This document shows, in pieces, positions 2,314 to 51,001 of a stretch of 64,000 nt of DNA. Both the position numbers and the translations under genes were made by a program. The number at the start of each line of letters is the position of its first letter. The stretch's first letter is position 1. The notes beneath the pieces are model-generated. The model was not told where the DNA came from, searched no databases, and worked only from the letters and a program-made list of their open reading frames with translations. The stretch comes from Dendrobates tinctorius (lineage: Eukaryota): NCBI RefSeq assembly GCF_039654945.1, contig NW_027361684.1, positions 31,682,001 to 31,746,000 of the forward strand, written 5' to 3'.

Positions 2314-2393
2314 TTTTGGTAGAAATGTAGACAAAATCCAACAAACTATATAGTAATGTAAAACAAGGTACAAGGTGTCTATAGGACAGGGGA

Positions 2394-3460: not shown

Positions 3461-3719
3461 TGGATTGCTTTTAAAAAAGCAGTTTGCGGAGCAGTGGGTA
3501 AACAGCAATGCCAGCGTGTCAGGAAGCCTTAGAAGGCAGCCCAACAACCAACACCACTGATACACCACAATATAGCCTCCCCTTGCACTGCACACACAGT
3601 GACTTGTGTGTTGTGCAGGCCAAATCGCTAGCAGCAGAAGCAGTTTTTTTGTCTTCTTCCCTGCCTAACGCTCTCCCTACAGAATCAGCAGCAACCTCTC
3701 CCTATACTAAGATCGGCAG

Positions 3720-7220: not shown

Positions 7221-8812
<1,592 letters not shown>

Positions 8813-21037: not shown

Positions 21038-21217
21038 TTGAAGGGGTGAGCTGGGCAGGTTTGGATTGACTGTTGGCGTGTCCCCTGATGTCCCTGTCTT
21101 GTTGCACCCATGCCCTCCCCCCCAGCAGTGCTGGGAGCACCCTTTATGGAAAGTTGTACATTTAACTCTGCTAAGCTGTGACTGTTCAGTCTTTATAGCT
21201 ACAAGCTGAGTGTAATC

Positions 21218-24080
21218 ATGGCCACTGCACTCTGCAAACCTACTCTTATGATTTCAAGGGACGATTTATTATTCTGTAATCATCCACAATTTCTCATGGA
21301 CTCCCCTTCTTGGAGCATGATTGCTAATTCAACAATTGAGTACATAAAATCCATTACTTCTGTGAAACCTGTGGAGGTGTACTGCAAGAGAGGTAGGAGA
21401 GGAGGCGTCCTGGCACGCCTTCGGAGGAGAGGGTTCAGAACAGCTCTTCCTTCACTCCACTTGGCTAATGTCCGTTCCTTATCTAACAAAATGGAGGATC
21501 TGAGCTTACTTTGTAACATGAGATCTGATATGGCCAATTCAGCTGCTCTTTGTTTTACTGAGACCTGGTTGAATAAGACCATCCCTGATTGTAGTCTGGA
21601 TCTACCTGGTTTTGTTATCTACAGAGCTGACCGTGATTGTGTAGCTTCAGGTAAACAAAGGGGGGGTGGGGTATGTCTCTACATCAACACTAGCTGGTGC
21701 TGCGATGTTAACATACTGGGAAAAAGTTGCTCTCCAGATCCAGAGTACCTTGCACTCAATTGTAGACCATTTTACTCTCCAAGAGAGTTTTCATCTATGG
21801 TTCTGGTTGCAGTATATATTCCCCCTCAAGCATCTGTTAAAGCTGCTATTGGTGAATTAGCTTGCAAAATATCAGAATGGGAGAAAGGATCTCCAGAAGC
21901 ATTTGTGATCGTAATGGGGGACTTTAACAAAGGAAAACTCAACCTGGATCTCCCCAAATTTACTCAACATATAAACTGCTTCACGAGAGAGAACAATACG
22001 CTTGATCACTGCTATACAGTCATAAAAGGGGCCTACAGGGCAGTGAGAAGAGCAGCAGTGGGCTTTTCAGATCATTGTCTAATTCATTTAATTCCAGCCT
22101 ACAGGCAGAGGTTGAAAACATCCAAACCTACAGTTTATACAAAGAAGACATAGTCTGAGGAGGCAAAATTGCAACTACAAGCATGCTTTGAATGCACGGA
22201 CTGGGAGGTATTCCAGGAAACATGCTCGGGTCTGGATGAATGGGTTGATGCAGTGTCCTCATATATCCGTTTTTGTGAAGACACGTTTATTCCATCCAAA
22301 TCTGTCCACTTTCGGGGAAACAACAAGCCGTGGTTTACAAATAAAGTCAGGTTGATCCGTAAGAGAAAAGAGGAGGCTTATAAAGCAGGCGATATTACTG
22401 AATTCAAGAAACTTAGGAACTCGCTATCTAAAGAGATCAAGTTAGCCAAACACGAGTATGCAAAGATTCTGGAGGAAAGGTTCTCATCAAAAGATACTAG
22501 ATCTGCATGGAGAGGATTAAGAGAGGTCATCAATTATAAAAGCCACCCCACTATAGTGAACCCCAGCAGAAGTCTGGCAGCAGAGTTAAATGAATTCTAC
22601 TGCAGATTTGAGGCAAGCTCTACACACAGTGGCTATTCATCTCTAAGCTCCTCAGTCTGTTCATATAAAGATCATTCATTGTGCAACACCCAAGTAGTGA
22701 TCTCCGAGGCAGAGGTGATACGCATCCTGAAGGGACTTAAGGTCAAAAAGGCACCTGGCCCTGATGGTGTATCTCCAATGTGTCTGAAAGTATGTGCTAC
22801 CCAGCTTGCCCCTATACTGACAAATATATACAATGTGTCACTGAAAGAGTGCGTTGTACCTCAGTGTTGGAAAAATTCCACAATTATCCCTGTCCCCAAG
22901 AAAGTGGGATCCTCTGAGTTGAACGACTACAGACCAGTAGCACTCACATCTGTAGCTATGAAAGTCTTCGAAAGAATTATGATGTCCCACCTGATAAAAT
23001 TCACGCAGAAGCTATGGGACCCGCTTCAGTTTGCCTATAAGGAGAATCGTTCGGCAAACGACACTGTCAATCTGGCACTGAAGTACATTTTGGATCATAC
23101 AGATGAACTGCACTCATATGTCCGGATTCTTTTCATGGACTTTAGCTCAGCGTTCAATACCATTGATCCGAATTTACTTCATAAGAAAATGGTAGCTCTT
23201 GGAGTCCCTCTCAACTTATGCTTGTGGATTTATAACTTCCTGACAGCCAGGATACAGAGTGTAAAATTTGGACCATTCACTTCGGACACCTTGGTCACAA
23301 ACATCGGGGCACCTCAGGGGTGTGTTTTGTCCCCGTTACTGTTTTCTCTCTATACAAATGATTGCATCTCTTCAGCAGACTCAGTAAAAATCTTGAAATT
23401 TGCCGATGATATAACACTGATTGGTCTCATCAGGGGAAATGCTGAAGACTTGTATCGGAGTGAGGTGGAAAGAATATGTGACTGGTGTAAAGCCAATAAT
23501 CTTGTACTCAACACTAAAAAAACTGCTGAGATGGTTGTGGATTTTAGGAAAGATCAGCATGAGATACTTCCAATCTACATCCATGACGAAGTGGTTCTTA
23601 GGGTCACAGAGACCAAATTCCTTGGTGTTATCATCTCTCATGATCTTAAATGGGGGAAAAACGTGGATGCTGTTATAAGAAAAGCACAACAGAGGATGTT
23701 CTTCCTGCGTCAGCTGAAAAGATATGGTTTGTCTAAGAATCTGCTGATCTTATTCTTTAATGCTGTCATCAGATCTGTGATTTGTTCCTCTCTGATAGTC
23801 TGGTATGGGGGAGCCACTGCGCATGACAAACTCCGCTTACAAAGGACTTTCAGAACAGCAGAGAGAATTATAGGTTCCCCCTGCCTAAAATCCAGGATCT
23901 TTAAGATAAGAGTATTGGATCCCATGCATTGAAAATTTCATCCGATCCCTCTCACCCGGGACACTCCTCATTCCAACTACTCCCTTCAGGACGTCGCTTC
24001 AGAGTCCCCAAATGCAGCAGCAACTGCCATATGAACAGCTTCTATCCACTCTCTGTTCAACAAATAAATCGTCATGTGTA
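21218..24080 (+). pseudogene. APE-RT ORF of the Rex1/Babar element, with one nonsense codon (22151-22153) and a frameshift near 23880
   Basis: ORFs 21218-22153 and 22169-23932 share a frame. Motifs NVRSL, FTETWL, MGDFN, SDH, DFSSAFNTI, GAPQGCVLSP, KFADD. Confidence 0.9.
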
Positions 24081-28058: not shown

Positions 28059-30210
28059 TCATAAAAATGGAGCAAAACTGATAGCCTCATTAAGTCTTTT
28101 AGGATGTACAGTGTCAAGAGACCAAATCCAGCGGGTTTCTCACTGTGATAATTTTTGGGTCAAATTTCCACCTTGAACCCCAGGATTACTTATGTCAATG
28201 CCCCTGACACGAAGCAGCGAACTGTCACAGCCATGTTTAAGTTTAAAATGTCGCGGCGAATACGCACCTTCAATTGCCATGTAGTCATCCCAATGTATAT
28301 GAGATTGCATGGGCATAATGCAAAGTATACCACATATCGTGACATACAGGAAATACGATTTCTGATGTCGTATGTCCTGGTTCTTGATGAATTGAAAAAT
28401 TTTTCGTGTGTTCAATGTTGGGGCAGGCAACACATCGGCCACAAGGAGCACAGCCACATCTAGGACGCCGGCATCAAGAAAACTAGACCCTGGTTCTGGC
28501 TGGTAGTGGCTATGGACAAGGTGGTCCCTGAGATTTTTCGAACATCAGATGGTTATACTAGGCACCGACAGAAGAAGCTGATTTAGAATTGGATCAGTTT
28601 GGAGGATAGGCCACGCCCTTTGAAGACATCCTTTCATCCGGGCAAATTATGCATGATAGTTAGTGATAAATCTTATTTTATCAGCGGATTTTGTCTCCTT
28701 TTTTTTGTATAATAAGGACTGGTGTGTGAACCATTTGGCACGATTATATGCTCTTTTTATGGCCCGTCCGCTATAGCCTCTCTCTCGAAACCAAGCAGCA
28801 AGATCCTCTGCCTGTAGCTCGAAATCTTGTTCAGTAGAAGAAATCCTGCGAAGACGCAAGAATTGTCCTATTGGAATAGAACCAATTAATGGTTTGCGGT
28901 GGGCAGATGAAGCATTCAGTAGCATGTTGGATGATGTCTCCTTCCTAAAGATGCTGGTTTGTAGGATGTCATCAGCATCTCTCCATACTGTGACATCAAG
29001 GAAGCTAATTTTATTAGCATCATGATTGTAAGTAATGTGAATATTTTTAACAATCGAGTTTACACCTACCATGAATTTGCATAGTTGTAAAGAGTTCCCC
29101 TGCCAGATCAGAAAGATGTCATCGATGTACCACACCCAAAAGAGGATGCGGTCCATCGACAGACATTGGTCTGACAGGGGGAGGTCCCTCTCCCACAGCC
29201 CCAGGAAAAGGTTGGCATACGAGGGGGCAAAGGAAGCACCCATCGCTGTACCCTGGAGCTGTAGGTAGAAGGACCCCATAAATGTAAAAAAATTATGAGT
29301 AAGGGAAGACTCTAGGAGCTCAAGAATCAGGAGGACTATCTCCCCTGGCAAGTTTGAGATATTAAGAAAATACCTGGTAGCTGCCAAACTGTCTGTATGC
29401 CTGATGCTGGTGTACAGGGATTCTACATCACCTGTCACCAGCATCGTGTTGTGGCCAATATGGAGACCATTTTAAAAACTCCCCTGTGTCTAGAATGAAG
29501 GAAGGAAGACTCTCAACTATAGGCTGTAGTTTTGAGTCTATCCAATGATTGACTTTTTCTAAATAATTGCCAGAACCGGAAATGATCGGAGGTCCTGGAG
29601 GGGCCTCCAGATTCTTGTGTATTTTAGGTAACAGGTAAAATGTGGAGATGGTAGGTTCCTGTACCTGAAGTGCTGAAGCCAGATCCCTTGTAATAACACA
29701 GTTTTGAACCGCTGAGTTCAGAATCTTAGTCAGCTGTGTCACAAAGGATGAAAGGGGGTTAAAAGTTAGACGCTTATAGCAAGTCTTGTTGTTAAGCTGT
29801 CTAAATGCCTCTTTCTCATAAAGAGACTTGGGCCATTTGACAACATTTCCCCCTTTATCTGCTGGCTTCAGCACAATATGAGGAAGCCCCTTCAGGACAT
29901 CCAAGCTGCAGCATTCATCACGACTCAAATTGTCCCTACCCACCCCTCATGGAATACCCAAGAAGTCCTTAGAGACCACTTGTACAAATAAATCAACCAC
30001 TGGGCAAGTAGCAAGGGGAGGAAATTCTTTAGACTTAACTCTAATGGACGGGGGGGGGGGATCTTACCTCCCTCTCCAGAATCATGCTCAGAGGATAAGT
30101 CTTCCAGATCTTGTAGTGCTAATTGTTCCTTTTCTGTAGGAAACAAATTTTGCAAGAGAGGGTCAAAGAAATTTTCTTGAAAATCAAGGACCTAGCAAAC
30201 AGATGCAGGT
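28059..30210 (-). pseudogene. Penelope RT + GIY-YIG endonuclease, frameshifted
   Basis: KPADKGG, YLLPKIHK, DVESLYTSI, QGTAMGASFAPSYANL, YIDD, PCGRCVAC linker, VVYFALCPCNLIYIGMT, ETRWIWSLDTVHP. Confidence 0.92.
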
Positions 30211-31269: not shown

Positions 31270-32557
31270 CCGTATTTTTCGGACCATAAGACGCACTTTT
31301 TTCCCCCAAAATTTTGGGGGAAAGTGGGGGGTGCGTCTTATGGTCGCAATGCACGGTACCTGGTGCGCTGGTGGCAGCGGGCGAGGCTCTGCGGTGCGGT
31401 GGTGGCAGCGGGCGGCGCTCTGCAGTGCGGTGGTGGCAGCGTGCTGTGCTCCGGTGCAGGGGCGGCGGCTCCGCCGGCGTTTCTTCGCAGCCCGGAGGCC
31501 CCTGCACACCCCTTGCTGGGCGCCGCCAAGTTGCGGTGGCCTCCGGGAGCATGGACGCCGGCAAGATGGCCGCCCGTCCGGGGACGGCGTATGCGCAGCT
31601 TCAGATCTCGTGCTGAGATCTCGGGGGGCGAGATTCAAATCTCGGCAACGAGATCTCGTCCCCCGAGATCTCGGCACGAGATCTGAAGCTGCGCATGCGC
31701 CATCCCAGGACCGGCGGCCATCTTGCCGGCGTCCATGCTCCCGGAGGCCACCGCAACATGGCGGCGCCCAGCAAGGGGTGTGCGGGGGCCTCCGGGCTGC
31801 GAAGAAACGCCGGCGGAGCCGCCGCCCCTGCACCGGAGCACAGCCCGCTGCCACCACCATACCGCAGAGCGCCGCCCGCTGCCACCACTGCTGAGCCCAC
31901 TTGTCCCTGCCACAGCTGCCCCTGCCTCAGCTGCCCCTGCCTCAGATGCCCCAGCTGCCCCTGCCCCAGCACAGCTGCCCCTGCCCACCTGCCCCTGCCA
32001 CAGCTGCCCCTGCCCCAGCACAGCTGCCCCTGCCCACCTGCCCCTGCCCCAGCTGCCCCTGCCCCAGCTGCCCCTCCCACAGCTGCCCCTGCCCCAGCAC
32101 AGCTGCCCCTGCCCCAGCTGCCCCTGCCCCAGCACAGCTGCCCCTGCCCACCTGCCACAGCTGCCCCTGCCCCTGCCACAGCTGCCCCTGCCCCAGCTGC
32201 CCCTGCCCAGCTGCCCCTGCCACAGCTGCCCCTGCCCCAGCACAGCTGCCCCTGCCACAGCTGCCCCAGCACAGCTGCCCCTGCCACAGCTGCCCCTGCC
32301 ACAGCACAGCTGCCCCTGCCACAGCTGCCCCTGCCACAGCTGCCCCCTGCACAGCCCACCCGCCCCAGCCCCAGTGCAGCTGCCCCAGCACAGAGCCGCC
32401 GCCACCGCACGAGCCTGGACCACTGAATGACCCCTGTGACTACTTCTCCACCTGTGCCGGATCCCTTCCCAGGTAAGCTGAATTCGGACTGTAAGACGGA
32501 CCCCCATTTGACACATTATTATTTTTTTCCCTATTTTCCTTCTGAAAATAGGGGTGC
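31270..32557. mobile_element. Non-autonomous mariner-like element, right end cut by an LTR insertion
   Basis: TA-CCGTATTTTTCGGACCATAAGACGCAC start; internal GC-rich palindrome and minisatellite; the subterminal ...aaataggggtgc is interrupted by TGTCAC. Confidence 0.75.
31905..32390. repeat. GC-rich minisatellite (cagctgcccctgcc variants)
   Basis: 15-20 bp variant units; explains the Pro/Cys/Ala-rich ORFs in all frames. Confidence 0.9.
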
Positions 32558-33491
32558 TGTCACGTCTCCGTCAGATTTGGGGCCTGCTGTTCCGGTCGCA
32601 GCCACTAGGAGGCGCCGGGCCGCCACTTCGCCGTCAGACTCGGGGACGGCTGTTCCTGCCTCGGCCACTGGGAGGCGCCGTGGTTCTATTACGTCGCCGT
32701 CAGACTCAGGGCCTATGGTCCCAGCTTTAGCCACTAGGAGGCGCCGGTCTGTCACGTCACCGTTGGATTCAAGGCCTGCTGTTCCGGTCACGGCCACTAG
32801 GAGGCGCCAGACCGCCACTTCACTGTCAGACTCGGGGACGGCTGTTCCTGCCTCGGCCACTGGGAGGCGCCGTGGTCCGCCCGTGAGTTATGGTGGTGAC
32901 AGAGAAGTGGCTCCTGCGCAGGCATCTGGTGGGCGCAGGCTCCGCCCCTCTGTCAGTCATCAGGGGGTTACTGCAACTCCATCTGGCCTGGTCTTGGGGG
33001 CGGCCCTAATGACATCACCAGTCCAGGAACCTGTGAGGGATGACCTGATCCCTCAAATACCTTGGGACTGGTCTTGCAAGCCGCCGGATATATTCTTGGT
33101 TCCCCTGTGTGTTACTTAGTGATTGATTTCTGTTTGACTCTGACCTCAGCCTGGATTTCTGACCCCTCTTTTGCCTGACGATTCTGTACTTCTGCTACTC
33201 TCCTGGTTTGTGACCTTGGCCTGGATATTCTGACTCTGCTACTTCCTAACGATTCTGTACCTCTGCCGCCCTCCTGGTTTTTGACTCTGACCTTGGCCTG
33301 AAATTGACTCTGCTATTGCCTGCCGTTTTTGTACTTCACTCTGACGACCGTCCTGCTCTGGCCGCTGCTCCTATTCAGACAGTACCTCCTGGGCTCTGTT
33401 GTAAATCCAGATCCCTGTATAGGGGTAAAGGGTATCAGTGTTTCTCGGGGTGTTGCCTGGCTGCAGCCCAGAACCGCAGACGGACGTTACA
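32558..33491 (+). repeat. 5' LTR (934 bp)
   Basis: TGTCAC...GTTACA; apparently identical to 37049-37982. Confidence 0.93.
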
Positions 33492-33656
33492 TTATATCCG
33501 GCCATAAAATTAACTGCTTCTTGTGTATATACCCAACATATACAAAAGCAGTCTCCCTGAACTTTTTTTTTTCTTCTTCTGACTGAGCTGATTTTTAGCC
33601 TGAACACCTGTTGCAGTGCACAGCCTGGAAGATCTCTCTCATTTTCTTGGACAACT

Positions 33657-36600
33657 ATGCGGCAGTCTGGAGTCTTCAGGGAGAGAGCTGCACCTCAGAG
33701 ATCCATGCTCCTGGCACGTCGACCTCTGGGCAACTACTCTGGCTATGGTTGCCCAGAGGTTCAGGTATTGCCCGCAGATGCGGCTAAAGTTTTATTACCC
33801 ATTTCAGTTTCATGTGGTCAGAAATCGCTGTGTTTAAACGCGTATGTGGATAGTGGTTCTGAAGGAAATTTTATGGATTCCTTGACTGCTAGGAATTTGG
33901 GTGTAACTCTACTAAAACTTAATGCCCCTATTAAAACCACGGCTATTAATGGCACGTCCATTATTCAGGAGGGGGTTAAGTTTGTTACTGCCAAGGTTGC
34001 CATGTCTGTGGGAGCCTTACACACTGAGCTGGTGTCATTTTTTGTGATGGACAATTTAACCTCTGCAGTTATTCTGGGTATGCCATGGCTACGCCAGCAC
34101 AATCCTGTCATCGACTGGCACTTGGGTGACGTTGTACGCTGGAGCCCACAGTGTCAGAAAAATTGCATATCCTTGGCAGTAAACCAAGTTAAGGTTAAAA
34201 CCCCCCGCATACCGTTTGCTTTCAGAGATTTTGAGGATGTCTTTTCTATTGTAGAATCTGAAAAGCTACCCCCTCACAGAGAGTATGATTGCCCTATTGA
34301 TCTGATTCCGGATGCCCGTCTCCCTAAGGGAAGAATATTTAATCTCTCTGGCCCAGAGCGTCAGGCCATGAATGACTATATTGCAGATAGCCTAAGAAAA
34401 GGGTTTATCAGACCGTCCATTTCTCCAGTTGGGGCTGGGTTCTTCTTTGTGGAGAAGAAAGATGGTGGTCTCAGACCCTGCATTGATTATCGGGAGTTGA
34501 ATGCAATCACTATAAAAAACCAGTATCCGCTTCCACTCATCCCTGATCTTTTTAATCAGCTAACAGGAGCCCGTTGGTTTACTAAACTTGACCTCCGGGG
34601 GGCATACAATCTAGTCCGCATAAGAGACGGGGATGAGTGGAAAACGGCCTTCAATACACCCCTTGGCCATTTTGAGTACCTGGTTATGCCGTTCGGACTC
34701 AGCAACGCACCTGCCGTATTTCAGCACTTTGTTAACGATATTTTTAGAGACATTTGTGGGGTGTATGTCGTGGTGTATTTAGATGACATTCTGATTTACT
34801 CTGCTGACCCTGTGACACACTCTCAACACGTCTGTTCTGTGCTACAAAGACTACGTGAACACTCCTTGTTTGCTAAACTGGAGAAATGTGTCTTTTTTGC
34901 TGAGGAGGTACAATTTTTAGGATACATGGTTTCAGGTAAAGGCTTCCGCATGGATCCTGCCAAGGTCCAGCCTATTAAGGCTTGGGTGCAACCAAAATCG
35001 CTGAAAGCGCTGCAGCGATTTTTGGGGTTCGCTAATTATTACCGCAAGTTTATTAGAGGTTTCTCAGAGATTGCCAAGCCACTCACGGATCTGACCCGGA
35101 AAGGGGCGGACGTGGCCAACTGGAATCCTGAGGCAATTCAGGCGTTTTCTACGTTAAAAGAGAGTTTTGTGGCCAACCCAGTTTTGGTTCAGCCGGATCT
35201 GGACCGTCCATTTATTGTGGAGGTGGATGCCTCTGAAATCGGAGTGGGAGCAGTGCTATCACAAGGCACTACATCCCTCACTCAGCTTCGTCCATGTGCG
35301 TTTTTTTCCCGCAAATTCTCTCCCACGGAGAAAAACTATGATATTGGGAATCGGGAACTATTGGCAATTAAATGGGCCTTCGAGGAATGGCGTCACTTCC
35401 TCGAGGGCGCCAAACACAAGATCACGGTAATTACCGATCATAAGAATCTGACATACCTAGAATCAGCAAAAAGGTTAAATCCTAGACAAGCAAGGTGGGC
35501 ATTGTTTTTCTCTAGGTTTAATTTTATAATCACCTTCCGCCCTGGTACAAAAAATGTGAGGGCCGATGCCCTCTCTCGCAGTTTCTGCCCCTCACAAGCC
35601 GAGGACTGTGAACCAGTTCCGATATTGGCCACTGGGATCATTGTCTCCGCAGTGTCATTGGACCTTCTGGAGGAGATCCGTAAATCCCCAGAACAAGCCC
35701 CTGACACTACGCCACCCAACAAATTGTTCGTTCCACCTGCGTTTCGCCTACAAGTGCTTAGAGAATCACATGACTCTGTCTTGGCAGGCCATCCTGGTCT
35801 CAATAATACCGCCAGATTGATAACTAGGAATTTTTGGTGGCCGACGGTGGTTAAGGACTGCAAAGAATATGTCTTAGCATGTGAGGTCTGTGCCCGCGCC
35901 AAGTCCTCCCATACTCGCCCTGCCGGCTGGCTCCAGTCCTTGCCCACCCCCGAGAGTCCATGGACCCACATCTCCATGGACTTCATTACGGACCTACCGT
36001 CCTCAGATGGAAAGACGTGTATCTGGGTGGTGGTGGACAGGTTCAGTAAACAATGTCATTTTGTCCCCCTGTCGGGGTTACCTAACTCGGAAACGTTGAG
36101 TAAACTGTTTATTGTACATGTGGTACGTTTACACGGTGCCCCGGTCAATATTGTGTCTGACAGGGGTACCCAATTCGTGTCAAAGTTCTGGAGGGCGTTC
36201 TGTAAACGCATTGGTATTGAGCTATCTTTTTCCTCGGCTTACCACCCTGAAACCAATGGGCAAACCGAACGTGTCAACCAGGCTCTGGAGCAATACCTTC
36301 GTTGCTACATCTCAGAACACCAGTCCGATTGGGCAGAACATCTGCCACTAGCCGAGTTTGCCCTAAACAATCAGTATCAGGACTCCATTAAGTCTACCCC
36401 CTTTTTCTGCAACCACGGGCTGCATCCGCGCTTTGGCTCATTCTCGGCCAGAATGTCGGAGCTTCCTGGGGTAGAGAAAAATATACATCGTTTAAAAACC
36501 ATTTGGTCTGAGGTAAACTCTAACTTGAAAGGGGCCCGGGTTAGACAGACCTCGGCAGCGAACAAACGGCGATCCAAAGGACCGCACCTGGGAGTTGGAG

Positions 36601-37610
36601 ACAAGGTTTGGCTCTCCACCAAAAACATCAAGCTTAAAGTACCGTCTGCCAAACTGGGTCCCAGATTTATTGGTCCATACGAGATTATAGAGGTGATTAA
36701 CCCGGTGGCCTTCCGTTTAAAACTCCCTCAGTCTTTCAAATTTCCCAATGTCTTCCACAAGTCTCTCCTCAAGTTGTATCGCTCCCCAATTCACCCTGTC
36801 CCATCCCCTCCTCCTCCCATTTCGGTCGGAGGGTCCTTGGAGTATGAAGTCCAGGGTGTCCTTGACTCCCGCCTTGTAAGAGGGTCCGTACAGTATCTGG
36901 TACACTGGAGGGGCTACGGCCCGGAGGAGAGGTCCTGGGTCCCTGCGCGGGACATCCATGCAAAAGCACTAATTAGAAGGTTTCACCTCCTTCACCCTGA
37001 CAAACCAGGTTTTGAGGGTCCGGAGGCCCCTCTTGGAAGGGGGGGTACTGTCACGTCTCCGTCAGATTTGGGGCCTGCTGTTCCGGTCGCAGCCACTAGG
37101 AGGCGCCGGGCCGCCACTTCGCCGTCAGACTCGGGGACGGCTGTTCCTGCCTCGGCCACTGGGAGGCGCCGTGGTTCTATTACGTCGCCGTCAGACTCAG
37201 GGCCTATGGTCCCAGCTTTAGCCACTAGGAGGCGCCGGTCTGTCACGTCACCGTTGGATTCAAGGCCTGCTGTTCCGGTCACGGCCACTAGGAGGCGCCA
37301 GACCGCCACTTCACTGTCAGACTCGGGGACGGCTGTTCCTGCCTCGGCCACTGGGAGGCGCCGTGGTCCGCCCGTGAGTTATGGTGGTGACAGAGAAGTG
37401 GCTCCTGCGCAGGCATCTGGTGGGCGCAGGCTCCGCCCCTCTGTCAGTCATCAGGGGGTTACTGCAACTCCATCTGGCCTGGTCTTGGGGGCGGCCCTAA
37501 TGACATCACCAGTCCAGGAACCTGTGAGGGATGACCTGATCCCTCAAATACCTTGGGACTGGTCTTGCAAGCCGCCGGATATATTCTTGGTTCCCCTGTG
37601 TGTTACTTAG
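33657..37610 (+). CDS. pol: Intact Pol: protease-RT-RNaseH-integrase-chromodomain plus LTR-encoded tail (1317 aa)
   Basis: VDSGS, VYLDD, DASEIG/ELLAI/TDHKNL/ADALSR, HHCC, MDFI-SDRG-TERVN, GPY, chromodomain YEVQGVLDSR...YLVHWRGY. Confidence 0.96.
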   Translation: MRQSGVFRERAAPQRSMLLARRPLGNYSGYGCPEVQVLPADAAKVLLPISVSCGQKSLCLNAYVDSGSEGNFMDSLTARNLGVTLLKLNAPIKTTAINGTSIIQEGVKFVTAKVAMSVGALHTELVSFFVMDNLTSAVILGMPWLRQHNPVIDWHLGDVVRWSPQCQKNCISLAVNQVKVKTPRIPFAFRDFEDVFSIVESEKLPPHREYDCPIDLIPDARLPKGRIFNLSGPERQAMNDYIADSLRKGFIRPSISPVGAGFFFVEKKDGGLRPCIDYRELNAITIKNQYPLPLIPDLFNQLTGARWFTKLDLRGAYNLVRIRDGDEWKTAFNTPLGHFEYLVMPFGLSNAPAVFQHFVNDIFRDICGVYVVVYLDDILIYSADPVTHSQHVCSVLQRLREHSLFAKLEKCVFFAEEVQFLGYMVSGKGFRMDPAKVQPIKAWVQPKSLKALQRFLGFANYYRKFIRGFSEIAKPLTDLTRKGADVANWNPEAIQAFSTLKESFVANPVLVQPDLDRPFIVEVDASEIGVGAVLSQGTTSLTQLRPCAFFSRKFSPTEKNYDIGNRELLAIKWAFEEWRHFLEGAKHKITVITDHKNLTYLESAKRLNPRQARWALFFSRFNFIITFRPGTKNVRADALSRSFCPSQAEDCEPVPILATGIIVSAVSLDLLEEIRKSPEQAPDTTPPNKLFVPPAFRLQVLRESHDSVLAGHPGLNNTARLITRNFWWPTVVKDCKEYVLACEVCARAKSSHTRPAGWLQSLPTPESPWTHISMDFITDLPSSDGKTCIWVVVDRFSKQCHFVPLSGLPNSETLSKLFIVHVVRLHGAPVNIVSDRGTQFVSKFWRAFCKRIGIELSFSSAYHPETNGQTERVNQALEQYLRCYISEHQSDWAEHLPLAEFALNNQYQDSIKSTPFFCNHGLHPRFGSFSARMSELPGVEKNIHRLKTIWSEVNSNLKGARVRQTSAANKRRSKGPHLGVGDKVWLSTKNIKLKVPSAKLGPRFIGPYEIIEVINPVAFRLKLPQSFKFPNVFHKSLLKLYRSPIHPVPSPPPPISVGGSLEYEVQGVLDSRLVRGSVQYLVHWRGYGPEERSWVPARDIHAKALIRRFHLLHPDKPGFEGPEAPLGRGGTVTSPSDLGPAVPVAATRRRRAATSPSDSGTAVPASATGRRRGSITSPSDSGPMVPALATRRRRSVTSPLDSRPAVPVTATRRRQTATSLSDSGTAVPASATGRRRGPPVSYGGDREVAPAQASGGRRLRPSVSHQGVTATPSGLVLGAALMTSPVQEPVRDDLIPQIPWDWSCKPPDIFLVPLCVT

Positions 37611-37982
37611 TGATTGATTTCTGTTTGACTCTGACCTCAGCCTGGATTTCTGACCCCTCTTTTGCCTGACGATTCTGTACTTCTGCTACTCTCCTGGTTT
37701 GTGACCTTGGCCTGGATATTCTGACTCTGCTACTTCCTAACGATTCTGTACCTCTGCCGCCCTCCTGGTTTTTGACTCTGACCTTGGCCTGAAATTGACT
37801 CTGCTATTGCCTGCCGTTTTTGTACTTCACTCTGACGACCGTCCTGCTCTGGCCGCTGCTCCTATTCAGACAGTACCTCCTGGGCTCTGTTGTAAATCCA
37901 GATCCCTGTATAGGGGTAAAGGGTATCAGTGTTTCTCGGGGTGTTGCCTGGCTGCAGCCCAGAACCGCAGACGGACGTTACA
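37049..37982 (+). repeat. Second LTR (934 bp)
   Basis: Preceded by the PPT and followed by another PBS and internal start. Confidence 0.93.
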
Positions 37983-38974
37983 TTATATCCGGCCATAAAA
38001 TTAACTGCTTCTTGTGTATATACCCAACATATACAAAAGCAGTCTCCCTGAACTTTTTTTTTTCTTCTTCTGACTGAGCTGATTTTTAGCCTGAACACCT
38101 GTTGCAGTGCACAGCCTGGAAGATCTCTCTCATTTTCTTGGACAACTATGCGGCAGTCTGGAGTCTTCAGGGAGAGAGCTGCACCTCAGAGATCCATGCT
38201 CCTGGCACGTCGACCTCTGGGCAACTACTCTGGCTATGGTTGCCCAGAGGTTCAGGTATTGCCCGCAGATGCGGCTAAAGTTTTATTACCCATTTCAGTT
38301 TCATGTGGTCAGAAATCGCTGTGTTTAAACGCGTATGTGGATAGTGGTTCTGAAGGAAATTTTATGGATTCCTTGACTGCTAGGAATTTGGGTGTAACTC
38401 TACTAAAACTTAATGCCCCTATTAAAACCACGGCTATTAATGGCACGTCCATTATTCAGGAGGGGGTTAAGTTTGTTACTGCCAAGGTTGCCATGTCTGT
38501 GGGAGCCTTACACACTGAGCTGGTGTCATTTTTTGTGATGGACAATTTAACCTCTGCAGTTATTCTGGGTATGCCATGGCTACGCCAGCACAATCCTGTC
38601 ATCGACTGGCACTTGGGTGACGTTGTACGCTGGAGCCCACAGTGTCAGAAAAATTGCATATCCACTGCAATTGGAATTTCCCACACAGCAATGGCATAAA
38701 GTGAGACTAGGGACTTTTTTTTTTTAAGTGGCGGAGGAATACAGTGCGGAAGGATACCTACCTTCCGTCATTGGATTCCTGCAGCCAGTAGAGAACGGCA
38801 GCATCATCTGATGCTGCAGTTCTCTACTCAAGATCGTCGTGGGACACACTCGTGGACTGCTTCGGATCGTGGGTGAGTATTTTTGTGGTTTGTTATGTTA
38901 ATATTTATTCCGTAGACGACAATGGCTTCGGGGAACAATGTGACAAGTATTGGTAAGTATGTTACTCTATGTTA

Positions 38975-39710
38975 TATGTACTGTATGTCTATGTATGTAT
39001 TGTATGTAGTATGTATGTAGTATATATGTGGTATGTATGTAGCATGTAGTATGTATGTAGTATGTATGTAGCATGTATGTGGTATGTATGTAGCATGTAG
39101 TATGTATGTAGCATGCATGTAGTATATATGTAGCATGTATGTAGTATGTATGTGGTATGTATGTAGCATGTAGTATGTATGTAGCATGCATGTAGTATAT
39201 ATGTAGTATGTATGTAGCATGTAGTATGTATGTAGTATGTAGTATGTATGTAGCATGCATGTAGTATGTATGTAGCATGCATGTAGTATGTATGTAGCAT
39301 GCATGTAGTATGTATGTAGTATGTATGTAGCATGTATGTAGTATGTACGTGGTATGTATGTAGCATGTAGTATGTATGTAGTATGTATGTGGTATGCATG
39401 TAGCATGCATGTAGCATGCATGTAGCATGCATGTAGCATGCATGTAGCATGTATGTAGTATATATGTAGTATGTATGTAGCATGTAGTATGTATGTAGCA
39501 TGCATGTAGTATGTATGTAGCATGTATGTATGTAGCATGCATGTAGTATGTATGTAGCATGTATGTAGTATGTATGTAGCATGTATGTAGTATGTATGTA
39601 GTATGTATGTAGCATGCATGTAGTATGTATGTAGCATGTAGTATGTATGTAGTATATATGTAGTATGTATGTAGCATGTAGTATGTATGTAGCATGTAGT
39701 ATGTATGTAG

Positions 39711-43830: not shown

Positions 43831-46789
43831 ATTCTCTTATGAAAGACAAAATCTCACTATAACTTTCTTATTAATATTCTTGTTTATAAACCTTTTGGAT
43901 TAGATAACCGCATTGTAGTTGTTCAATAATAAAATGAATTATCAAAAATTCAAAATGACTAAAAATCCTCTAGACAGTAGTGCAGAAGTGTGTATTCAAT
44001 TGCACAGTAAATGTAGATAGGACAGACTTTAGAGTTAATATGCTTTTAAATTAGTTTTCTGTCCTTTAAAAAGTCGGTGGCTTATCTGTAGGATAAATTA
44101 TCAATACTAAAATAGTAGGCACTGATTACAGTGGCAGGTTCGTACTTGCCTTCATGGTATTGTTTTTGTAACTGTTCAAGATTTTGCAGCATTGTTCCAT
44201 TTGCTTTAATAAATGTCTCGAACATTGAATAAAAAGGAAAAAATAAGCGCAGGCAAGTACAAGCCAGGTAACAGACGTAAGAGGTCTAATCAAAAAACTG
44301 ATCGGAGATGATGCCGATACTCAGACCTCTACCGATCTAATACTGATAGTTTACACTAAGACCCGGTTCACACAACATTATAAAAAATGGTTCAATTCTC
44401 AGCGAGAAAGATTTTTTTCTCACTTGTTATTCATGTGTAGTAAATTAGTGTATGCTGCAAGTTTTTTCCACATGTAGATTCAGCCAGTGAAAAAAATGCT
44501 CTCATCTGCACTGCCCCCTTGTATACCATTGGTCTGAATGTGGTCTCTTTTTTTAACGGGTCGCACTTGGACTGAATATACAGTTGCGAGCACGAGCCCT
44601 TAGGGTAAGCCATGAATTTTTAAAGCTTTAGGGCATATTGTATTTACTTAGTCAAATTGTTATCGCCCTGAGGAATGTAGTGTACATTGATAATTAACAG
44701 TTCTAATTAATATCAGGCAATAGCAGCACTTTTCACATACTAATGAAATTAATTTTATAACTCAAAATTAGAAACATATTTCCATTTCTTCAGTTCATGT
44801 AAATTAGACCTTTAGTTCTCAAGTAAAACAATGATTCTTCCAGCTGTTGTTATAGACTACAATTGTAGTATCACTGACTATGGCATGAACTAGTTGTGGC
44901 CTAGTTAAAGAAGCACTCCTCCTCCTATCATAGTTTGAAATCATATTATATAGCACGGTGTAGTTACAATGGATCATTTTGCCTTTCTACAGTTATTTCT
45001 CTCTTCTCTGTTCTATGTAGAAGCAGGAAGTCTCTTGACCCTGCAGAAATCATACCCCTTTTCACCTACTGATCCAGCTGCTCTGCTCCTACACCCTGCC
45101 AGGGACTTTTGTGACTCATGAATCATACAGGGAAAATTGACCTCCCGCTTCTACATAGACCTTGGAAGGATTCAGCTAGTTAGTTTTGTAATGATGTGAT
45201 GTCATGGACCTAATGGAAACCGGAAGAATTACCTGGGTAGAAAGCCAAAATGAGCAATTGTAAGTACACAGTGCCAAATAATATGATGACTGCAATATAT
45301 TAAGAGGATAAAAATAATGATGGAAGTGTTTCTTTACCTCCATGGAAGACTGATAAGTCAACGAGACGTTTCATGTTCTGAGTGATTTGAACAATGCATT
45401 TTTGTTATAAGGATTTCACAATAGTAAGGTGACCACACAAGTAGATATTACAATATCTGCTATTGAAATGATTAATGAGATACTAGTTATGTGGAAAGAG
45501 TGGAACTGCTGTCCTTCAGCTACTGGAGGGGAAAACTAAAGATCAGGGTATCCATTGTAATAGATATATATTCACACATGGTATATCTATTTAACACCTT
45601 TGAACACCTATTTTTTATAGTTCATTTGTTTCCTAAATGCAAAGTTAGGCAACTTTTGAAATAGTCTAAAATAGTCTTTATTAAATCATTTTTAGCATCT
45701 TGCCATGGCAGAGTGCCTGTAAGTCTTTTACACAGTTGAGTGCTCTGTAAAAACGATATAAATCTGTCAGAGCTCCAGCTCAGTTGTGAGGGTTCCCTGA
45801 GCTTAACCTCTCCCTTCTCTCAGACCTAGGGATAGCAGAAGGGAGTGGGTTGAACACAGATCTCCACAGTGAGGACACAGGAAAAACTATGCCCAGTCTT
45901 AGGGAGGGCATTCAGAAAAAGCTACAGGAAAGGAGGAAAGCAAAGGTAGAGGAAATAAGTGCAGGATAGAAGATGTGCTGATTTATCAGCTAACAAAGAT
46001 AGCAGCAAACTGGATCCAACCTATATTACTGGGAGTGACATTCCCAAAAGAGTACAATCTGTAACTTGGATGAAGATGCAAACTGCATATCAGGCCATTT
46101 GACATTTATTATTACCAAAAGATAAAGACTATCATACAGTATGTCAAGAGATTTTTTTCAAAGTTAAATTTGTCCTTTAATTATAATTTTGTTTAATTGG
46201 AGAACCTTTCTAACGCAAATGGAGATTAGTCTGTTGTTGTCACGTGGGGCTTAGTCCCACTAAGGCTGTAATACCCGGGGGCCCTGTGATGTCCCTATAA
46301 CTAGGGGAAACCCTGTCTGACCCTCAACCCAGGGTTTTTGCTGATGGTGCAAATGCCTGAGCCTCCAACCGTTCCTTGTCTCCTGCTCAGCCCTGCACTT
46401 AACCCTCCACCCAGTGAGGAGACACACCACCAAAGCCCCCACACAAATAAAGACAGACAGGGAGAACTTAAACTGCACTGCGCCGCACCCACACAGGAAT
46501 ATACAGTAATGTGAACAGGGCACAACTAAACACAAATATGGGAAGGAGAAAGGATAACAATGGATCATACGACACCAGATACGAATCTCTCTCTCTGCAA
46601 CACCTCCACTCCAGACCGGAACCACTTGGTATGAAACACAAGCTATAATCGGCGACGCCCATAGGCCAGCATGACTATTTAAAGACCGTGGGCGTGACTA
46701 ACCATCCAACCTGGTCTCCAGCAGGATTAACCCCCGAGAGCCTGAAGATCAGGCCGGCGCCACTGAGGCTATAGTGGCTGGAGGTGGAA

Positions 46790-49700
46790 CTACCTCTGCC
46801 TGCCGGACGCTGTGGTGTGAACAGCGCCCGACATGACATTACCCCGTCTTCTACGAGGGACCTCCGGACCCTCAAGACTCATAGGACCCGGCTTGTCCGG
46901 ATGACGACGGTGAAAAGAACTGACCAGCCGATCCGCATGTATGTCTGAGGCTGGAACCCAAGACCTCTCCTCCGGACCATACCCCCGCCAGTGCACCAAA
47001 TACTGAAGAGTACGGCGTACTACTCGAGAGTCCACTACCTTGGCGACCTCAAATTCTAAATCGCCATCCACCATGACTGGAGGTGGCATCGGCGTCACGT
47101 CCACAGAGCCTACCACCTTTTTCAATAAAGCTCTGTGAAACACGTTGTGTATCTTGTACACCGCAGGAAGTTCCAACCGATACACCACTGGGTTAATGAT
47201 GGCAGAAATCCTAAAAGGCCCAATAAACCTTGGACCCAGTTTTAAAGATGGAATTTTGAGTCTTATGTTCTTTGTAGCTAACCACACCCATTCACCCACA
47301 CTCAGGTCCGGACCTGGCACACGTCTACTGTCAGCCACCCGTTTGTACCTGGCACTCATGCTCAACAAACGCTGTTTCACCCGCCTCCAGACTGATGACA
47401 AATGGGCTCCTAGCTGATCCTCCTCCGGGACACCCCCCGAGTCACCCTGACGTAAGGTACAAAACTGAGGATGTTGACCGTACACACAAAAGAATGGAGA
47501 CTCTCCCGATGACTCTTGGCGGTGATTATTTAACGCGAATTCGGCCAGAGGAAGGAAAGTAGACCACTCCTCCTGGTTGTCGGACACAAAGCATCGTAAA
47601 TATTGTTCTAGATTTTGGTTCATGCGCTCAGTTTGTCCATTAGACTGTGGATGAAACGCCGATGAATGTGACAACTTGATCCCCAAACGTGAGCAAAAAG
47701 CTTTCCAAAACCTCGCCACAAATTGCGTACCCCTATCAGATACTATGTCCGACGGTACTCCGTGGAGTCTGACCACCTCCTTCACAAATACCTGAGCCAA
47801 CGTCTTAGCATTGGGCAAAGAAGACAACGCCACAAAATGCGCCAACTTTGAAAAACGGTCAACCACCACCAGGATGACCGTGTTGCCCGCCGAGGCTGGC
47901 AAGTCAGTGATGAAATCCATGGAGATTTCTGTCCATGGCCTATTGGGTACCCCCAGAGGCTGTAGCGTGCCAGCAGGACGGGTACGGGGTGACTTAGCCC
48001 TAGCGCACGTGATGCAAGCTGCCACGTATGAGACCACGTCCAGCCGGATTTTGGGCCACCAGAAACGACGCGATACCAGCTCTAAGGTGCCCCTCACCCC
48101 TGGATGACCAGCCAGTACCGAGTCGTGGTGTTCCTTCAACACCTTAAGCCGAAGATGCAGGGGTACAAATGATTTGTTGGCTGGAAGTCCTGGTGGTACC
48201 TCCTCTTGGGCCTCGGCAATCTCCGCCTCTACCTCCGTCGTGAGAGCCGAGACCACTACCCCTTTCTGGAGGATGGGTACCGGCTCTTCCCGAGGTTCTC
48301 CCCCCGGAAAACACCTAGACAAAGCATCCGCCTTGGTGTTTTTAGCCCCGGGACGGTAAGTCACCAGAAAATTGAAATGAGTAAAAAACAATGCCCAGCG
48401 AGCCTGCCTAGGAGACAGACGCTTGGCCGTCTCCAGATAGAGCAGATTCTTATCTTCGGTGATGATTGTGACCTGGTGAGCCGCCCCCTCCAAGAAGTGT
48501 CGCCATTCCTCAAAAGCCAGTTTGATGGCCAACAACTCCCTGTTGCCGATATCATAATTCCGTTCGCCCGGCGACAGCTTCTTGGAGAAGTAGGCGCATG
48601 GATGCATCTCGCTCAAGAACGAGCCTTGAGACAGTACTGCCCCCACTCCCACCTCCGACGCATCAACCTCCACCACAAAAGGTTTAGACACGTCTGGTTG
48701 CACCAGAATGGGGGCTGAAGCAAAACTATTCTTCAGACGCTCAAAGGCACGTATAGCCACCTCAGGCCAGTTCGCCAGATCGGCACCCTTTTTTGTCATG
48801 TCCGTGAGCGGTTTGGCGATAGTCGAAAAGTGTTTTATAAACTTCCTATAATAATTCGCAAACCCAAGGAACTGCTGGAGTGCTTTCAGACTCTCCGGCC
48901 TCTCCCACTGCAGCACCGCTTGCACCTTAGCGGTGTCCATTTTAAACCCGGCTGCGGACACAATATATCCCAAAAAGGGCAACTCCTGGACAAAAAATAA
49001 ACATTTTTCCAGCTTAGCATAGAGCTGGTTCTCCCGGAGCAACTGTAACACCTGCCTGACATGCTCCAAATGAGTGTCCCGATCGCTAGAATAAATGAGG
49101 CTATCATCCAGGTATACAATCACAAATCTCCCCAGGACATGAGCAAATACATCATTAATAAAATGTTGGAAAACGGCAGGCGCGGTGGTCAACCCAAACG
49201 GCATAACCAGACTCTCAAAATGACCCTCAGGAGTGTTAAAGGCCGTCTTCCACTCATCCCCCTGACGGACCCTTATGAGGTTATACGCCCCCCTGAGGTC
49301 CAGCTTGGAAAACCATTTCGCCCCCGCTACCTGGTTGAACAAATCCGGGATTAACGGCATAGGGTAAGGATCACGGATAGTAATCTGGTTTAACTCTCGG
49401 AAATCCAGACACGGGCGTAACCCCCCATCTTTCTTCTTAATGAAGAAAAACCCCGCTGCTACAGGCGAGGATGAAGGCCGGATGTGCTTTGCTCAGACTC
49501 TCCACGATGTAGTCTTTCAGAGCTTGTCTCTCAGGACCAGAAATATTAAACATCCTGGCCTTAGGTAATTTGGCCCCGGGTTTTAACCTGATCGCACAGT
49601 CATAGGCTCTATGTGGAGGCAGTTCTGAGCAACCCTTCTCAGAGAAAACATCCGCGAAATCCTGCAAAGCCTCCGGCAGGCTGGGCGTCACGGCGGACAC

Positions 49701-50138
49701 ACATGTGGCCAAGCAATTGTCTTGGCAAAAACCACTCCATTGTACTATGTCCTGAGTTTTCCAATCAATTACCGGGTTGTGTCTGGACAACCATGGAAAA
49801 CCCAGGACCATTTGTGCTGGGAGATTACGGAGGACCCTACATGTAACCGACTCAGAATGTAGGACCCCAATGTGGAGTTTCACCTCTGCCACAAACTCCG
49901 TAATCTCCCCTTGAGGGAGGGGAACAGCATTAATGGTCACCACCTGTATGGGGTGAGGAAGTTTTTCAATCTTAAACCCGGCGGTGTGTGCAAACTCCTC
50001 ATCTATGAGATTGGTGGCGGAACCGCTATCCACAAACACTGATATTGGTAGCTCTCTGCCCGCGATAACCTTGGCAGGGAGCATACATTGAGATACCATC
50101 ATGGAGGATATGCATACGCTCAGTTGGGTCTCCTCCAT
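46790..50138 (-). pseudogene. pol: pol (protease, RT, RNaseH, integrase, chromodomain), one frameshift near 49490
   Basis: ORFs 49437-50138 (FVDSGS) and 46790-49360 (YLDD, HHCC, DDE, GPF, chromodomain). Confidence 0.93.
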
Positions 50139-50149
50139 ACCCTCTGAGC

Positions 50150-51001
50150 TTAACAGTTTTCCGCCGATGTGACCCTCTTAGGTAGTACCGGGCAAACGTT
50201 AACATAATGACCTCTTTTACCACAGTAGAAACATGCTCCGGACTTCCGGAATCCCGGAGCGCGACGCTTAACCTGTGCCACGCCAGCAATCTGCATAAGT
50301 TCAGGGGACTCATCTACTTCAACCACACTTGCACCTCTGCTTTCCCCCAGAGGTAGCGTCTCCTGTGCCCCCTGACGAAAACGGCGATCAATACGTATCA
50401 CCAAACTCATGGCAGACTCCAACGATGCCGGAGACTCATACATCAGGAGGGCTTGTTTAACCCTCCCTGACACCCCATGCATAAACTGGCTCCGCAGCGC
50501 TGGGTCATTCCACTGTGTGTCTACGGCCCAGCGGCGAAATTCCAAACAATAGTCCTCTGCCAAGCGCTCCCCCTGGCGGAGGGCGTGGATTTTAGATTCC
50601 GCTAGAGCCAGTCGGTCAGGATCATCATAAATGAGTCAGAGGGCAGAAAAAACATTATCAACAGAAAGAAATGTAGTAGAGTCAGCTGGTAAGGAAAATG
50701 CCCATGCTTGGGGGTCACCACTCAGTAATGACAACACCAGCCCTACCCGCTGGGCCTCATTACCTGAGGAGATTGGCCGCATGCGGAAGTATAACTTGCA
50801 GGCCTCCCGAAATACGACAAATTTGCTGCGATCCCCTGAAAAACGTTCTGGTAGCGGAAACTTCGGCTCTGCACCGATACCTGCAGATGCCGTTTGCACC
50901 TTCGCTACTACCAGGCCCTGCTGCTGAACTGCCCCTTTCAACTCGGAGACCTGTAAGGACAGCGCCGCCAACTGGCGGGTTATGGAATCTAATGGATCCA
51001 T
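50150..51001 (-). pseudogene. gag: gag with CCHC knuckle, one in-frame stop at 50636-50638
   Basis: MDPLDS...LPERFSG, then same-frame ...CFYCGKRGHYVNVC. Confidence 0.92.

Follow-up and report, generated by a model that had tools for sequence, protein, structure and literature searches.

A gag-less, Pol-encoding chromovirus family in the genome of Dendrobates tinctorius

Gag-less and self-priming LTR elements

In LTR elements, reverse transcription takes place in particles formed by Gag. The closest precedents for the gag-less chromovirus described here are two plant Ty1/copia families, Tos17 of rice and BARE-2 of barley. Tos17 is cleanly devoid of gag, and Lullaby, put forward as its helper, shares just ~57% identity with it, with the primer-binding site (PBS) as the main match; Tos17/RN304 resembles the frog element in combining clean loss of gag and continued mobility with intact LTRs, PBS, polypurine tract and long pol ORF (PMC3977881). 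Tos17 is, however, a plant copia element with a tRNA-type PBS and two copies in the reference genome (PMC3977881), whereas the frog element, a Ty3/gypsy chromovirus, is self-priming, exceeds 1,000 copies and has subfamilies diverged to a dS of about 1, with measured purifying selection. BARE-2 lacks a functional Gag and is mobile on Gag supplied in trans; it has a close autonomous partner with shared sequence, BARE-1 (PMC4350172, PMC13570524), while none was found for the frog element.

Chromoviruses of the Tf1/sushi type are self-priming, the PBS pairing with the 5' end of the element's own RNA (PMC4600332, PMC6317226). Those of the V clade share with the frog element the PR-RT-RH-IN-chromodomain arrangement, TG...CA ends, a 5-bp TSD and a self-complementary PBS, but they possess gag, with pol fused to it or expressed through recoding (PMC6317226, PMC4600332), whereas the frog lineage has its own Pol ATG. 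Foamy viruses offer an analogy only: their Pol has no Gag moiety and enters particles by an RNA-based route (PMC3705302), but they are retroviruses with a gag gene of their own and a pol mRNA produced by splicing, unlike the gag-less chromovirus. No gag-less case from a vertebrate or among chromoviruses was found in the literature, although Repbase, Dfam and the supplements of papers may hold such a family unremarked.

Layout of the locus and translation of Pol

The element occupies 32558..38663, forward strand, of the window, a 64,000-nucleotide stretch of contig NW_027361684.1, and is by sequence a self-priming chromovirus of the Tf1/sushi type. Its 5' LTR (32558..33491, 934 bp, TG...CA ends) carries 63-bp repeats in U3 and ~70-bp repeats in R-U5, and the second LTR (37049..37982) matches it with 0 mismatches over 934 bp, as the first-pass annotation had supposed. 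Since the identity extends 681 bp beyond the second LTR (32558-34172 = 37049-38663), the locus is composed of an LTR, an internal region, a shared middle LTR and a truncated internal region, the last being a partial copy (PBS, leader and protease; 37983..38663, equal to 33492-34172) with its right end missing. A TSD was looked for at the locus and none was found; the 5-bp TSD is known from 17 of 20 other copies. The 10-nt PBS (33493..33502) is the complement of the R start of the element itself (33083..33092), the predicted RNA 5' end and self-primer, and the polypurine tract lies at 37035..37045. The leader (33492-33656) measures 165 bp, as described previously, and contains a stem-loop conserved among subfamilies (33513..33552), a candidate packaging signal, with a T run of variable length 3' of it (33563-33572).

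An ATG at 33657 opens the gag-less Pol ORF (33657..37610, 1317 aa), in which the PR, RT, RH and IN motifs are all in place. Following an unconstrained N-terminal stretch of ~47 aa, Pfam locates PR (~33816-34097), RT (~34449-34928), RNase H (~35121-35519), IN (~35730-36248), SH3 (~36597-36782) and a C-terminal chromodomain (~36843-36986), the order of Tf1/sushi-group chromoviruses; the Ty1/copia order of Tos17 and BARE-2, with IN before RT, is absent. The last ~187 codons read into the second LTR. The gag of an autonomous chromovirus, with capsid and CCHC knuckle, is lacking: tblastn with 7 gag queries detected none, a 50-row gag profile run in six frames gave a best E of 1.9 as against 1e-73 in a control element, and Pfam on 17 stop-free frames of the LTR, the leader and the antisense strand returned no gag. 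The reported absence of capsid and zinc knuckle is thus borne out, and capsid homology in the LTR or leader, which would have spoken against it, was searched for and not found. The element at 46238-51631, presented earlier as a gag-bearing relative, does have gag, but is distant, with a pol ~65% identical, membership of another clade and no LTR match.

The Pol ATG, with A at -3, is preceded by no other ATG from 33083 onwards, where dinucleotide content would predict about 8.7. It is kept in 99 of 100 alignable rows (10 of them repeats), with A at -3 in 98 and variable -2 and -1 positions. Copies of older subfamilies carry 1-4 upstream ATGs in R-U5, common to both LTRs in four of the five copies checked, so strict first-AUG scanning, which had been proposed for the element, is limited to the young subfamily. 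A 16-bp stem-loop at 33721..33761, sitting where gag-bearing relatives have the gag-pol frameshift hairpin (the junction of the comparison family was read by eye), is probably a relic of the former gag-pol junction. One contig from a public run begins at 33078, although contig ends cannot show a transcription start.

A number of other features of this region were considered and set aside. In most copies the reading frame is already open at the T run, with a dN/dS of 0.5, but translation from upstream of 33657 is contradicted by an 8-nt indel that breaks the frame in one subfamily and by the varying length of the T run. An overlapping +2-frame ORF in the N-terminal stretch, where second positions are the most variable (7/18/7), meets stops in several subfamilies. 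Long-range pairing between R and this stretch appears in the MFE fold, but the whole-region z is -1.5 and the exact 8-nt complement is absent in 5 of 6 copies. A protein search with the N-terminus had no match among shorter proteins and a sole match, P0005, at similar lengths. A search for a sister element with an intact frameshift heptamer before the 33721..33761 hairpin gave three matches, all unrelated. For an origin as retroposed spliced pol RNA, there was neither a gag-bearing parent with the leader of this element nor a splice-type joint among the joints listed. Finally, the arginine-rich, LTR-encoded tail of Pol is improbable as a nucleocapsid substitute: codon positions carry no signal (17/15/18), and neither Pfam nor the ESM Atlas was informative. 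Of 18 older 3' LTRs, 13 keep the long U3 frame open over at least 115 codons, but other frames are often long as well, and among 19 older copies that were read there are 8 in which the phase of the polypurine tract brings Pol into a different frame.

Copy number, age and selection on Pol

The genome holds 640 exact LTR-end/PBS matches and 1354 RT-motif matches, and the gag-less junction is spanned at at least 99% by all 40 matches scored. Among 20 near-identical copies, picked as best matches and hence biased to young insertions, 17 have perfect 5-bp TSDs, all different, and LTR pairs with 0-4 mismatches, pointing to recent mobility in the gag-less form; the 1317-codon frame is kept in 13. No gag was present in 40 PBS-anchored copies, in 6 with an atypical leader, or in 64 RT-anchored clade members at 74-99.7% nucleotide identity; the 40 and the 64 overlap by 10, and with roughly 100 copies sampled out of more than 1,000, a rare gag-bearing member of the clade may have been missed. 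The spacing of LTRs agrees with these counts, 28 of 35 pairs among the first 100 R-start matches listed lying 4.17-4.55 kb apart, the gag-less length. The junction is also bridged by contigs from two public runs whose organism labels differ.

In a tree of 70 rows the gag-less copies form a single clade that excludes every gag-bearing row (support 100/100, stem 0.27), and the same gag-less leader is found in every subfamily. The closest relatives in the databases come from frogs and fish, and the RT groups with frog and fish gag+pol+chromo elements in a tree that leaves out sushi-ichi, Tf1 and an outgroup. The gag-less chromovirus is an old, still-multiplying family and not a one-off deletion, with gag absent family-wide and cis signals and pol intact. 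The first-pass annotation had argued for an evolved lineage as opposed to a random deletion, and multiple, recently mobile copies sharing one junction but not their TSDs uphold it; a junction unique to this locus, with gag in other members, is the reverse of what was found. Its description as young applies to the current burst, while the lineage itself is old, its subfamilies being separated by dS values of up to 1.15.

PR, RT, RH, IN and the chromodomain are under purifying selection. Pol dN/dS, a comparison proposed at the outset, is about 0.05-0.13 across copies (0.054-0.127 when only pairs with dS of at least 0.4 are taken, 36 of 45). The 47 codons after the ATG have a dN/dS of about 1, and indels among aligned copies in this stretch are only in-frame, of 3 nt or larger. 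Subfamilies are mosaic along pol, with synonymous divergence passing from 0.23 to 0.65 along one pair, which indicates that recombination occurs.

Possible sources of Gag

The lineage is probably a Pol-only one that borrows the Gag of chromoviruses of other clades, a vertebrate Ty3/gypsy counterpart of the way of life of Tos17 and BARE-2; that Gag would be borrowed in trans is inferred from general knowledge of LTR-element replication. In this reading, gag would have disappeared cleanly and a single time from an old self-priming vertebrate chromovirus lineage, out of the interval that runs from the PBS to the former gag-pol frameshift signal, and the lineage would have spread thereafter as a Pol-only element. 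The LTR transcript would serve as both genome and mRNA, Pol being translated directly from the ATG at 33657, the first AUG in the young subfamily and one that follows weak upstream AUGs in older ones. RNA and Pol would then enter particles made by one or more co-resident gag+pol chromovirus families from other clades, where the element's RT and integrase would act preferentially on their own RNA and LTR ends; such a preference would explain why Pol is kept by selection although the helper brings its own. Possible helpers include a self-priming gag+pol chromovirus family with at least 150 copies. The gag-bearing chromoviruses found in the genome belong to other clades and have unrelated LTRs, similarity to the gag-less element being confined to a U5 motif of ~50 bp, and their RT proteins are 62-72% identical to its own, a large distance for cross-packaging.

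A dedicated pair, in which a rare gag-only or gag+pol partner with shared cis signals provides capsids and the Pol-only element provides enzymes, had been suggested previously and is unlikely. Long-term selection on Pol would be easiest to explain if the capsid donor had no usable Pol, gag-only elements are described in plants (PMC4350172), and a partner with a changed LTR end would escape exact-match patterns. Nevertheless, samples and pattern searches yielded no gag-only or gag+pol element with the same LTR end, PBS or R start. ATGG within 30 nt of the PBS occurs nowhere, the three pattern rows with ATGG 25-85 nt away represent two internal deletions, and a looser pattern of LTR end plus ATGGA gave 11 matches against 21 for its control. 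The atypical-leader matches are gag-less, six of six, and of seven oddly spaced LTR pairs, four (one deletion, two insertions and one LTR without PBS) hold no gag; the other three comprise one deletion, one insertion and one truncated copy that was read in part. All 30 gag loci read have pol downstream; L176, a candidate gag-only element, proved to be a unique old deletion whose junction is in no other of 40 scored candidates, and the 870-bp junction insert of L268 is an LTR-like sequence, nested in inverted orientation, that has a short duplication of its target and no gag. It is rather unlikely, too, that a vertebrate lineage with neither a capsid gene nor a related helper has persisted over a long evolutionary span because its self-priming RNA and cis-acting Pol ride any chromovirus capsid or need none.

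Full independence from capsids, with Pol binding its RNA in cis and the resulting ribonucleoprotein carrying out reverse transcription and integration in no Gag shell at all, is very improbable. Foamy virus Pol is Gag-free and recruited through RNA, yet still uses a capsid (PMC3705302). Self-priming dispenses with tRNA loading, Pol is fully conserved, and the lineage is deep and still multiplying without a recognisable helper; against this stand the general localization of LTR-element reverse transcription to Gag particles, the abundance of gag sources in the genome, and an arginine-rich tail, the possible nucleocapsid replacement, that has no codon-position signal and, in several older copies, does not stay in phase with Pol. 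It is just as improbable that an unsampled autonomous parent carries the selection and that gag-less passengers, whose own Pol is dispensable, acquire its pol by recombination: the mosaic subfamilies and the relaxed codons after the ATG would fit, but gag is missing from 64 of 64 RT-anchored clade members, all subfamilies share the gag-less leader, and the ATG, the -3 purine and the N-terminal frame are kept, with only in-frame indels. A one-off deletion or assembly artefact at 32558..38663, to which the odd truncated tandem without TSD might lend itself, has next to no probability, given that the junction recurs in hundreds of dispersed insertions whose TSDs differ and that independent runs bridge it.

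Gag-less LTR elements with intact pol are described as single plant copia families with a proposed partner; in the frog the same design is kept over a deep vertebrate Ty3/gypsy clade of more than 1,000 copies that is currently in a burst and has its Pol under strong selection. Since a helper particle should already hold Pol, this selection suggests that a Gag-free Pol prefers to act in cis. The family offers a natural system in which to study the inter-family specificity of Gag-RNA recognition, as well as the manner in which a Pol without Gag fusion reaches the particle, and annotation pipelines that demand gag for an "intact" call would miss an actively spreading family such as this one.

Organization of the element and its surroundings

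The gag-less element at 32558-38663, a self-priming chromovirus of the Tf1/sushi type, begins with an LTR of 934 bp (32558-33491) that is identical to a second at 37049-37982, as the first-pass annotation had suspected. Its 10-nt primer-binding site (PBS; 33493-33502) is the complement of 33083-33092 within the LTR, and complementarity to an element's own LTR segment is the self-priming Tf1/sushi-type layout described in passages of PMC4600332 and PMC6317226. An ATG at 33657, 165 bp past the LTR and with A at -3, opens a frame of 1317 codons encoding protease (PR), reverse transcriptase (RT), RNase H (RH), integrase (IN), SH3 and chromodomain. Gag was detected in the element neither by tblastn, nor by Pfam across 17 other frames, nor with a 50-row gag profile that reaches E 1e-73 on the control element, a gag+pol chromovirus; the description of this locus as Pol-only is thus borne out. 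The closest database proteins are from frogs, and one of them, a dendrobatid protein by its source's label, begins at the same methionine and places within the gag-less clade.

Since LTR-to-LTR identity extends 681 bp further, as far as 38663, and takes in a second leader and protease sequence, the locus is a truncated tandem without target site duplication (TSD). Further tandems are present in the family, in which LTR-internal-LTR-internal arrays with a common LTR recur (32558-38663 here; L182, at G000:C20:37547000-37556900, with three LTRs; L081; L082); such arrays are common in plants according to part of PMC11899658. The Pol frame runs ~187 codons into U3 (37049-37610) as 21-residue repeats closing in arginine runs, while Pol of the comparison gag+pol family ends no more than about 16 codons from its LTR. 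In 13 of 18 older LTRs the tail forms a long open frame; it is a doubtful nucleocapsid stand-in, since its codon positions give no signal and, in 8 of 19 older copies, Pol runs in a different phase.

The window also holds a Tc1-type transposase frame of 354 codons with HTH and DDE domains (7426-8490, minus strand), non-LTR remnants with endonuclease and RT (21182-23932, plus; 28647-29471, minus), and tandem arrays at 2371-3468 (unit 133 bp), 31896-32389 (~15 bp), 38887-39493 (11-18 bp) and 52662-53744 (27 bp).

Gag-less copies across the genome

The gag-less junction is spanned at 99% or more by all 40 matches scored, of 3069 candidates. Among 20 copies fetched whole, which as best matches are skewed toward young insertions, 17 carry perfect 5-bp TSDs, all different (LTR mismatches 0-4); one further TSD has a one-base mismatch, and two copies are unscored. 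The 1317-codon frame is intact in 13 of the 20. Contigs of two public runs with different organism labels bridge the junction (33443-34309 at ~89%, and 33489-33791), which is therefore not an assembly error.

Exact patterns for the LTR end/PBS, RT and R start (the LTR stretch from 33083, the predicted RNA 5' end) gave 640, 1354 and 3560 matches, respectively, against 0 for each control, and copies were sampled through PBS, RT and LTR anchors. None of 40 PBS-anchored copies, taken in list order with previously fetched loci passed over, has gag (identity 85-99%). The RT sample of 70, comprising the first 30 matches and 40 of 51 later ones not adjoining a listed PBS match, shares 10 loci with the PBS sample; 64 are clade members (74-99.7% nucleotide identity), none with gag, a few being truncated or interrupted upstream. 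The six gag-bearing loci belong to other clades, with RT proteins 62-68% identical and no LTR match. Among the first 100 R-start matches, 28 of 35 LTR pairs are spaced by 4.17-4.55 kb, most being assessed from length alone; four of the seven oddly spaced pairs were fetched: two contain insertions, one a deletion, and one is an LTR lacking a PBS; gag occurs in none. Five diverged or decayed clade members (L204, L232, L243, L259, L263; 74-80%), also gag-less, show PBS variants and, in the leader, a long AT-rich hairpin. The element is a lineage, as had been proposed from the single locus.

Selection on Pol, its start codon and leader hairpins

A tree of 70 RT sequences, built without named reference or outgroup, unites the 14 clade members, all gag-less (100/100; stem 0.27). 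By Nei-Gojobori counts on non-independent pairs, dN/dS against five diverged copies is 0.17 for PR, 0.04 for RT and RH, 0.07 for IN and 0.10 for the chromodomain. Ten copies form 45 pairs: the 36 at dS 0.4 or above (up to 1.15) have values of 0.054-0.127, and the nine close ones 0.15-0.52, which is expected where post-insertion mutations dominate. This is an old lineage, with selection acting on Pol. Because every subfamily carries the same gag-less leader, their divergence would most simply have arisen after gag loss. The subfamilies are mosaic: between another locus (L073) and 33798-37000, synonymous divergence climbs from 0.23 to 0.65 along pol, and L075 apparently joins one subfamily's U3 with another's pol 5' end.

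That the Pol ATG is the first AUG of the predicted transcript, as initially proposed, holds at this locus, where 33083-33656 contains no ATG (~8.7 expected). The Pol ATG is kept in 99 of 100 alignable sequences (110 examined, 10 being repeats); 98 have A at -3, the two intervening bases differing by subfamily, and in 36 of 40 sampled copies no other ATG lies between the PBS and this one. Of the later in-frame ATGs, the first is lost in older subfamilies and the second sits beyond the protease active site; upstream, the frame is open in most copies, an 8-nt indel breaking it in one subfamily. However, R-U5 of five older copies contains 1-4 ATGs, mostly in weak context and common to both LTRs in all four copies open to comparison, which tells against a strict first-AUG model. 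The 47 codons downstream of the Pol ATG, with dN/dS near 1, form an in-frame spacer and no conserved peptide. At 33657-33728, shared variants fall mainly at second codon positions (7/18/7) with low overall divergence, possibly an RNA-level constraint.

The segment 33721-33761 forms a stem-loop with a 16-bp stem in 17 of 17 copies tried, one of them in a different register, at energies of -26 to -34 kcal/mol given without per-hairpin shuffle control. A slippery heptamer, spacer and hairpin is the layout of -1 frameshift signals, and a gag+pol family of the same genome has, by eye, such a heptamer, short spacer and hairpin at equal distance from the protease motif; a conserved heptamer is absent at this hairpin from the gag-less copies. 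The hairpin is probably a relic of the former gag-pol junction, and may now be put to other use. A second hairpin, directly past the PBS, persists with altered stems in 16 of 17 copies and is a candidate packaging signal.

Supply of Gag

The gag-only or gag+pol partner envisaged in the first-pass annotation did not emerge: searches by exact pattern or top match, which a rare or diverged partner could escape, found none with the same LTR end and PBS. ATGG does not occur within 30 nt of the LTR end/PBS, and at 25-85 nt only in two deletions; all six atypical leaders are gag-less. Where any ATG lies within 30 nt (20 copies), 18 lead on to the normal internal region, another is disrupted after 53 nt and the last meets another family's inverted pol. 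A gag-only-looking element proved unique and old. A gag+pol self-priming family comprises at least 150 close copies by gag query, with pol downstream of gag in 30 of 30 loci read; it is ~54% identical to the gag-less family over PR-RT, without LTR match. The control element (46238-51631, minus strand), likewise self-priming, groups with it, its frames broken. The PBS of the abundant gag+pol family resembles that of the gag-less family.

That the gag-less element is a real feature is well supported. Probably its genomic RNA serves as the message for its own Pol, and Gag from distant families of chromoviruses does the packaging; RT and integrase would prefer the element's own RNA and ends, a preference that would keep both enzymes under selection. 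A dedicated gag donor lying outside the samples, of the rare or diverged kind that such searches could miss, is unlikely. It is quite improbable that the copies are passengers of an autonomous parent outside the samples, given that 64 of 64 RT-anchored clade members lack gag, and replication without a capsid is just as improbable; a one-off deletion, with the same junction in 40 of 40 scored matches, is scarcely credible.

The preferred reading, packaging by distant Gag, has its closest likeness in Tos17 of rice, a mobile element that also cleanly lacks gag while retaining pol and cis signals, and for which a distant helper has been proposed (PMC3977881); BARE-2 relies on BARE-1 Gag, as stated in part of PMC4350172. 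Both are plant copia elements, whereas the present one is a vertebrate chromovirus. A pufferfish survey reports CsRN1, BEL-PAO and retrovirus families often without detectable gag, their lineage status being untreated in the portion concerned (PMC11117352); the word 'gag' is absent from a poison-frog transposable element paper (PMC6278860) and occurs once, in a legend, in a vertebrate review (PMC5381603). Searches of the open-licence full-text literature, a scope outside which subscription journals, supplements and repeat databases lie, turned up neither a gag-less lineage of chromoviruses nor an instance in a vertebrate. Compared with known gag-less elements, this family is notable for its depth, its copy number, its ongoing spread and its lack of a related helper.
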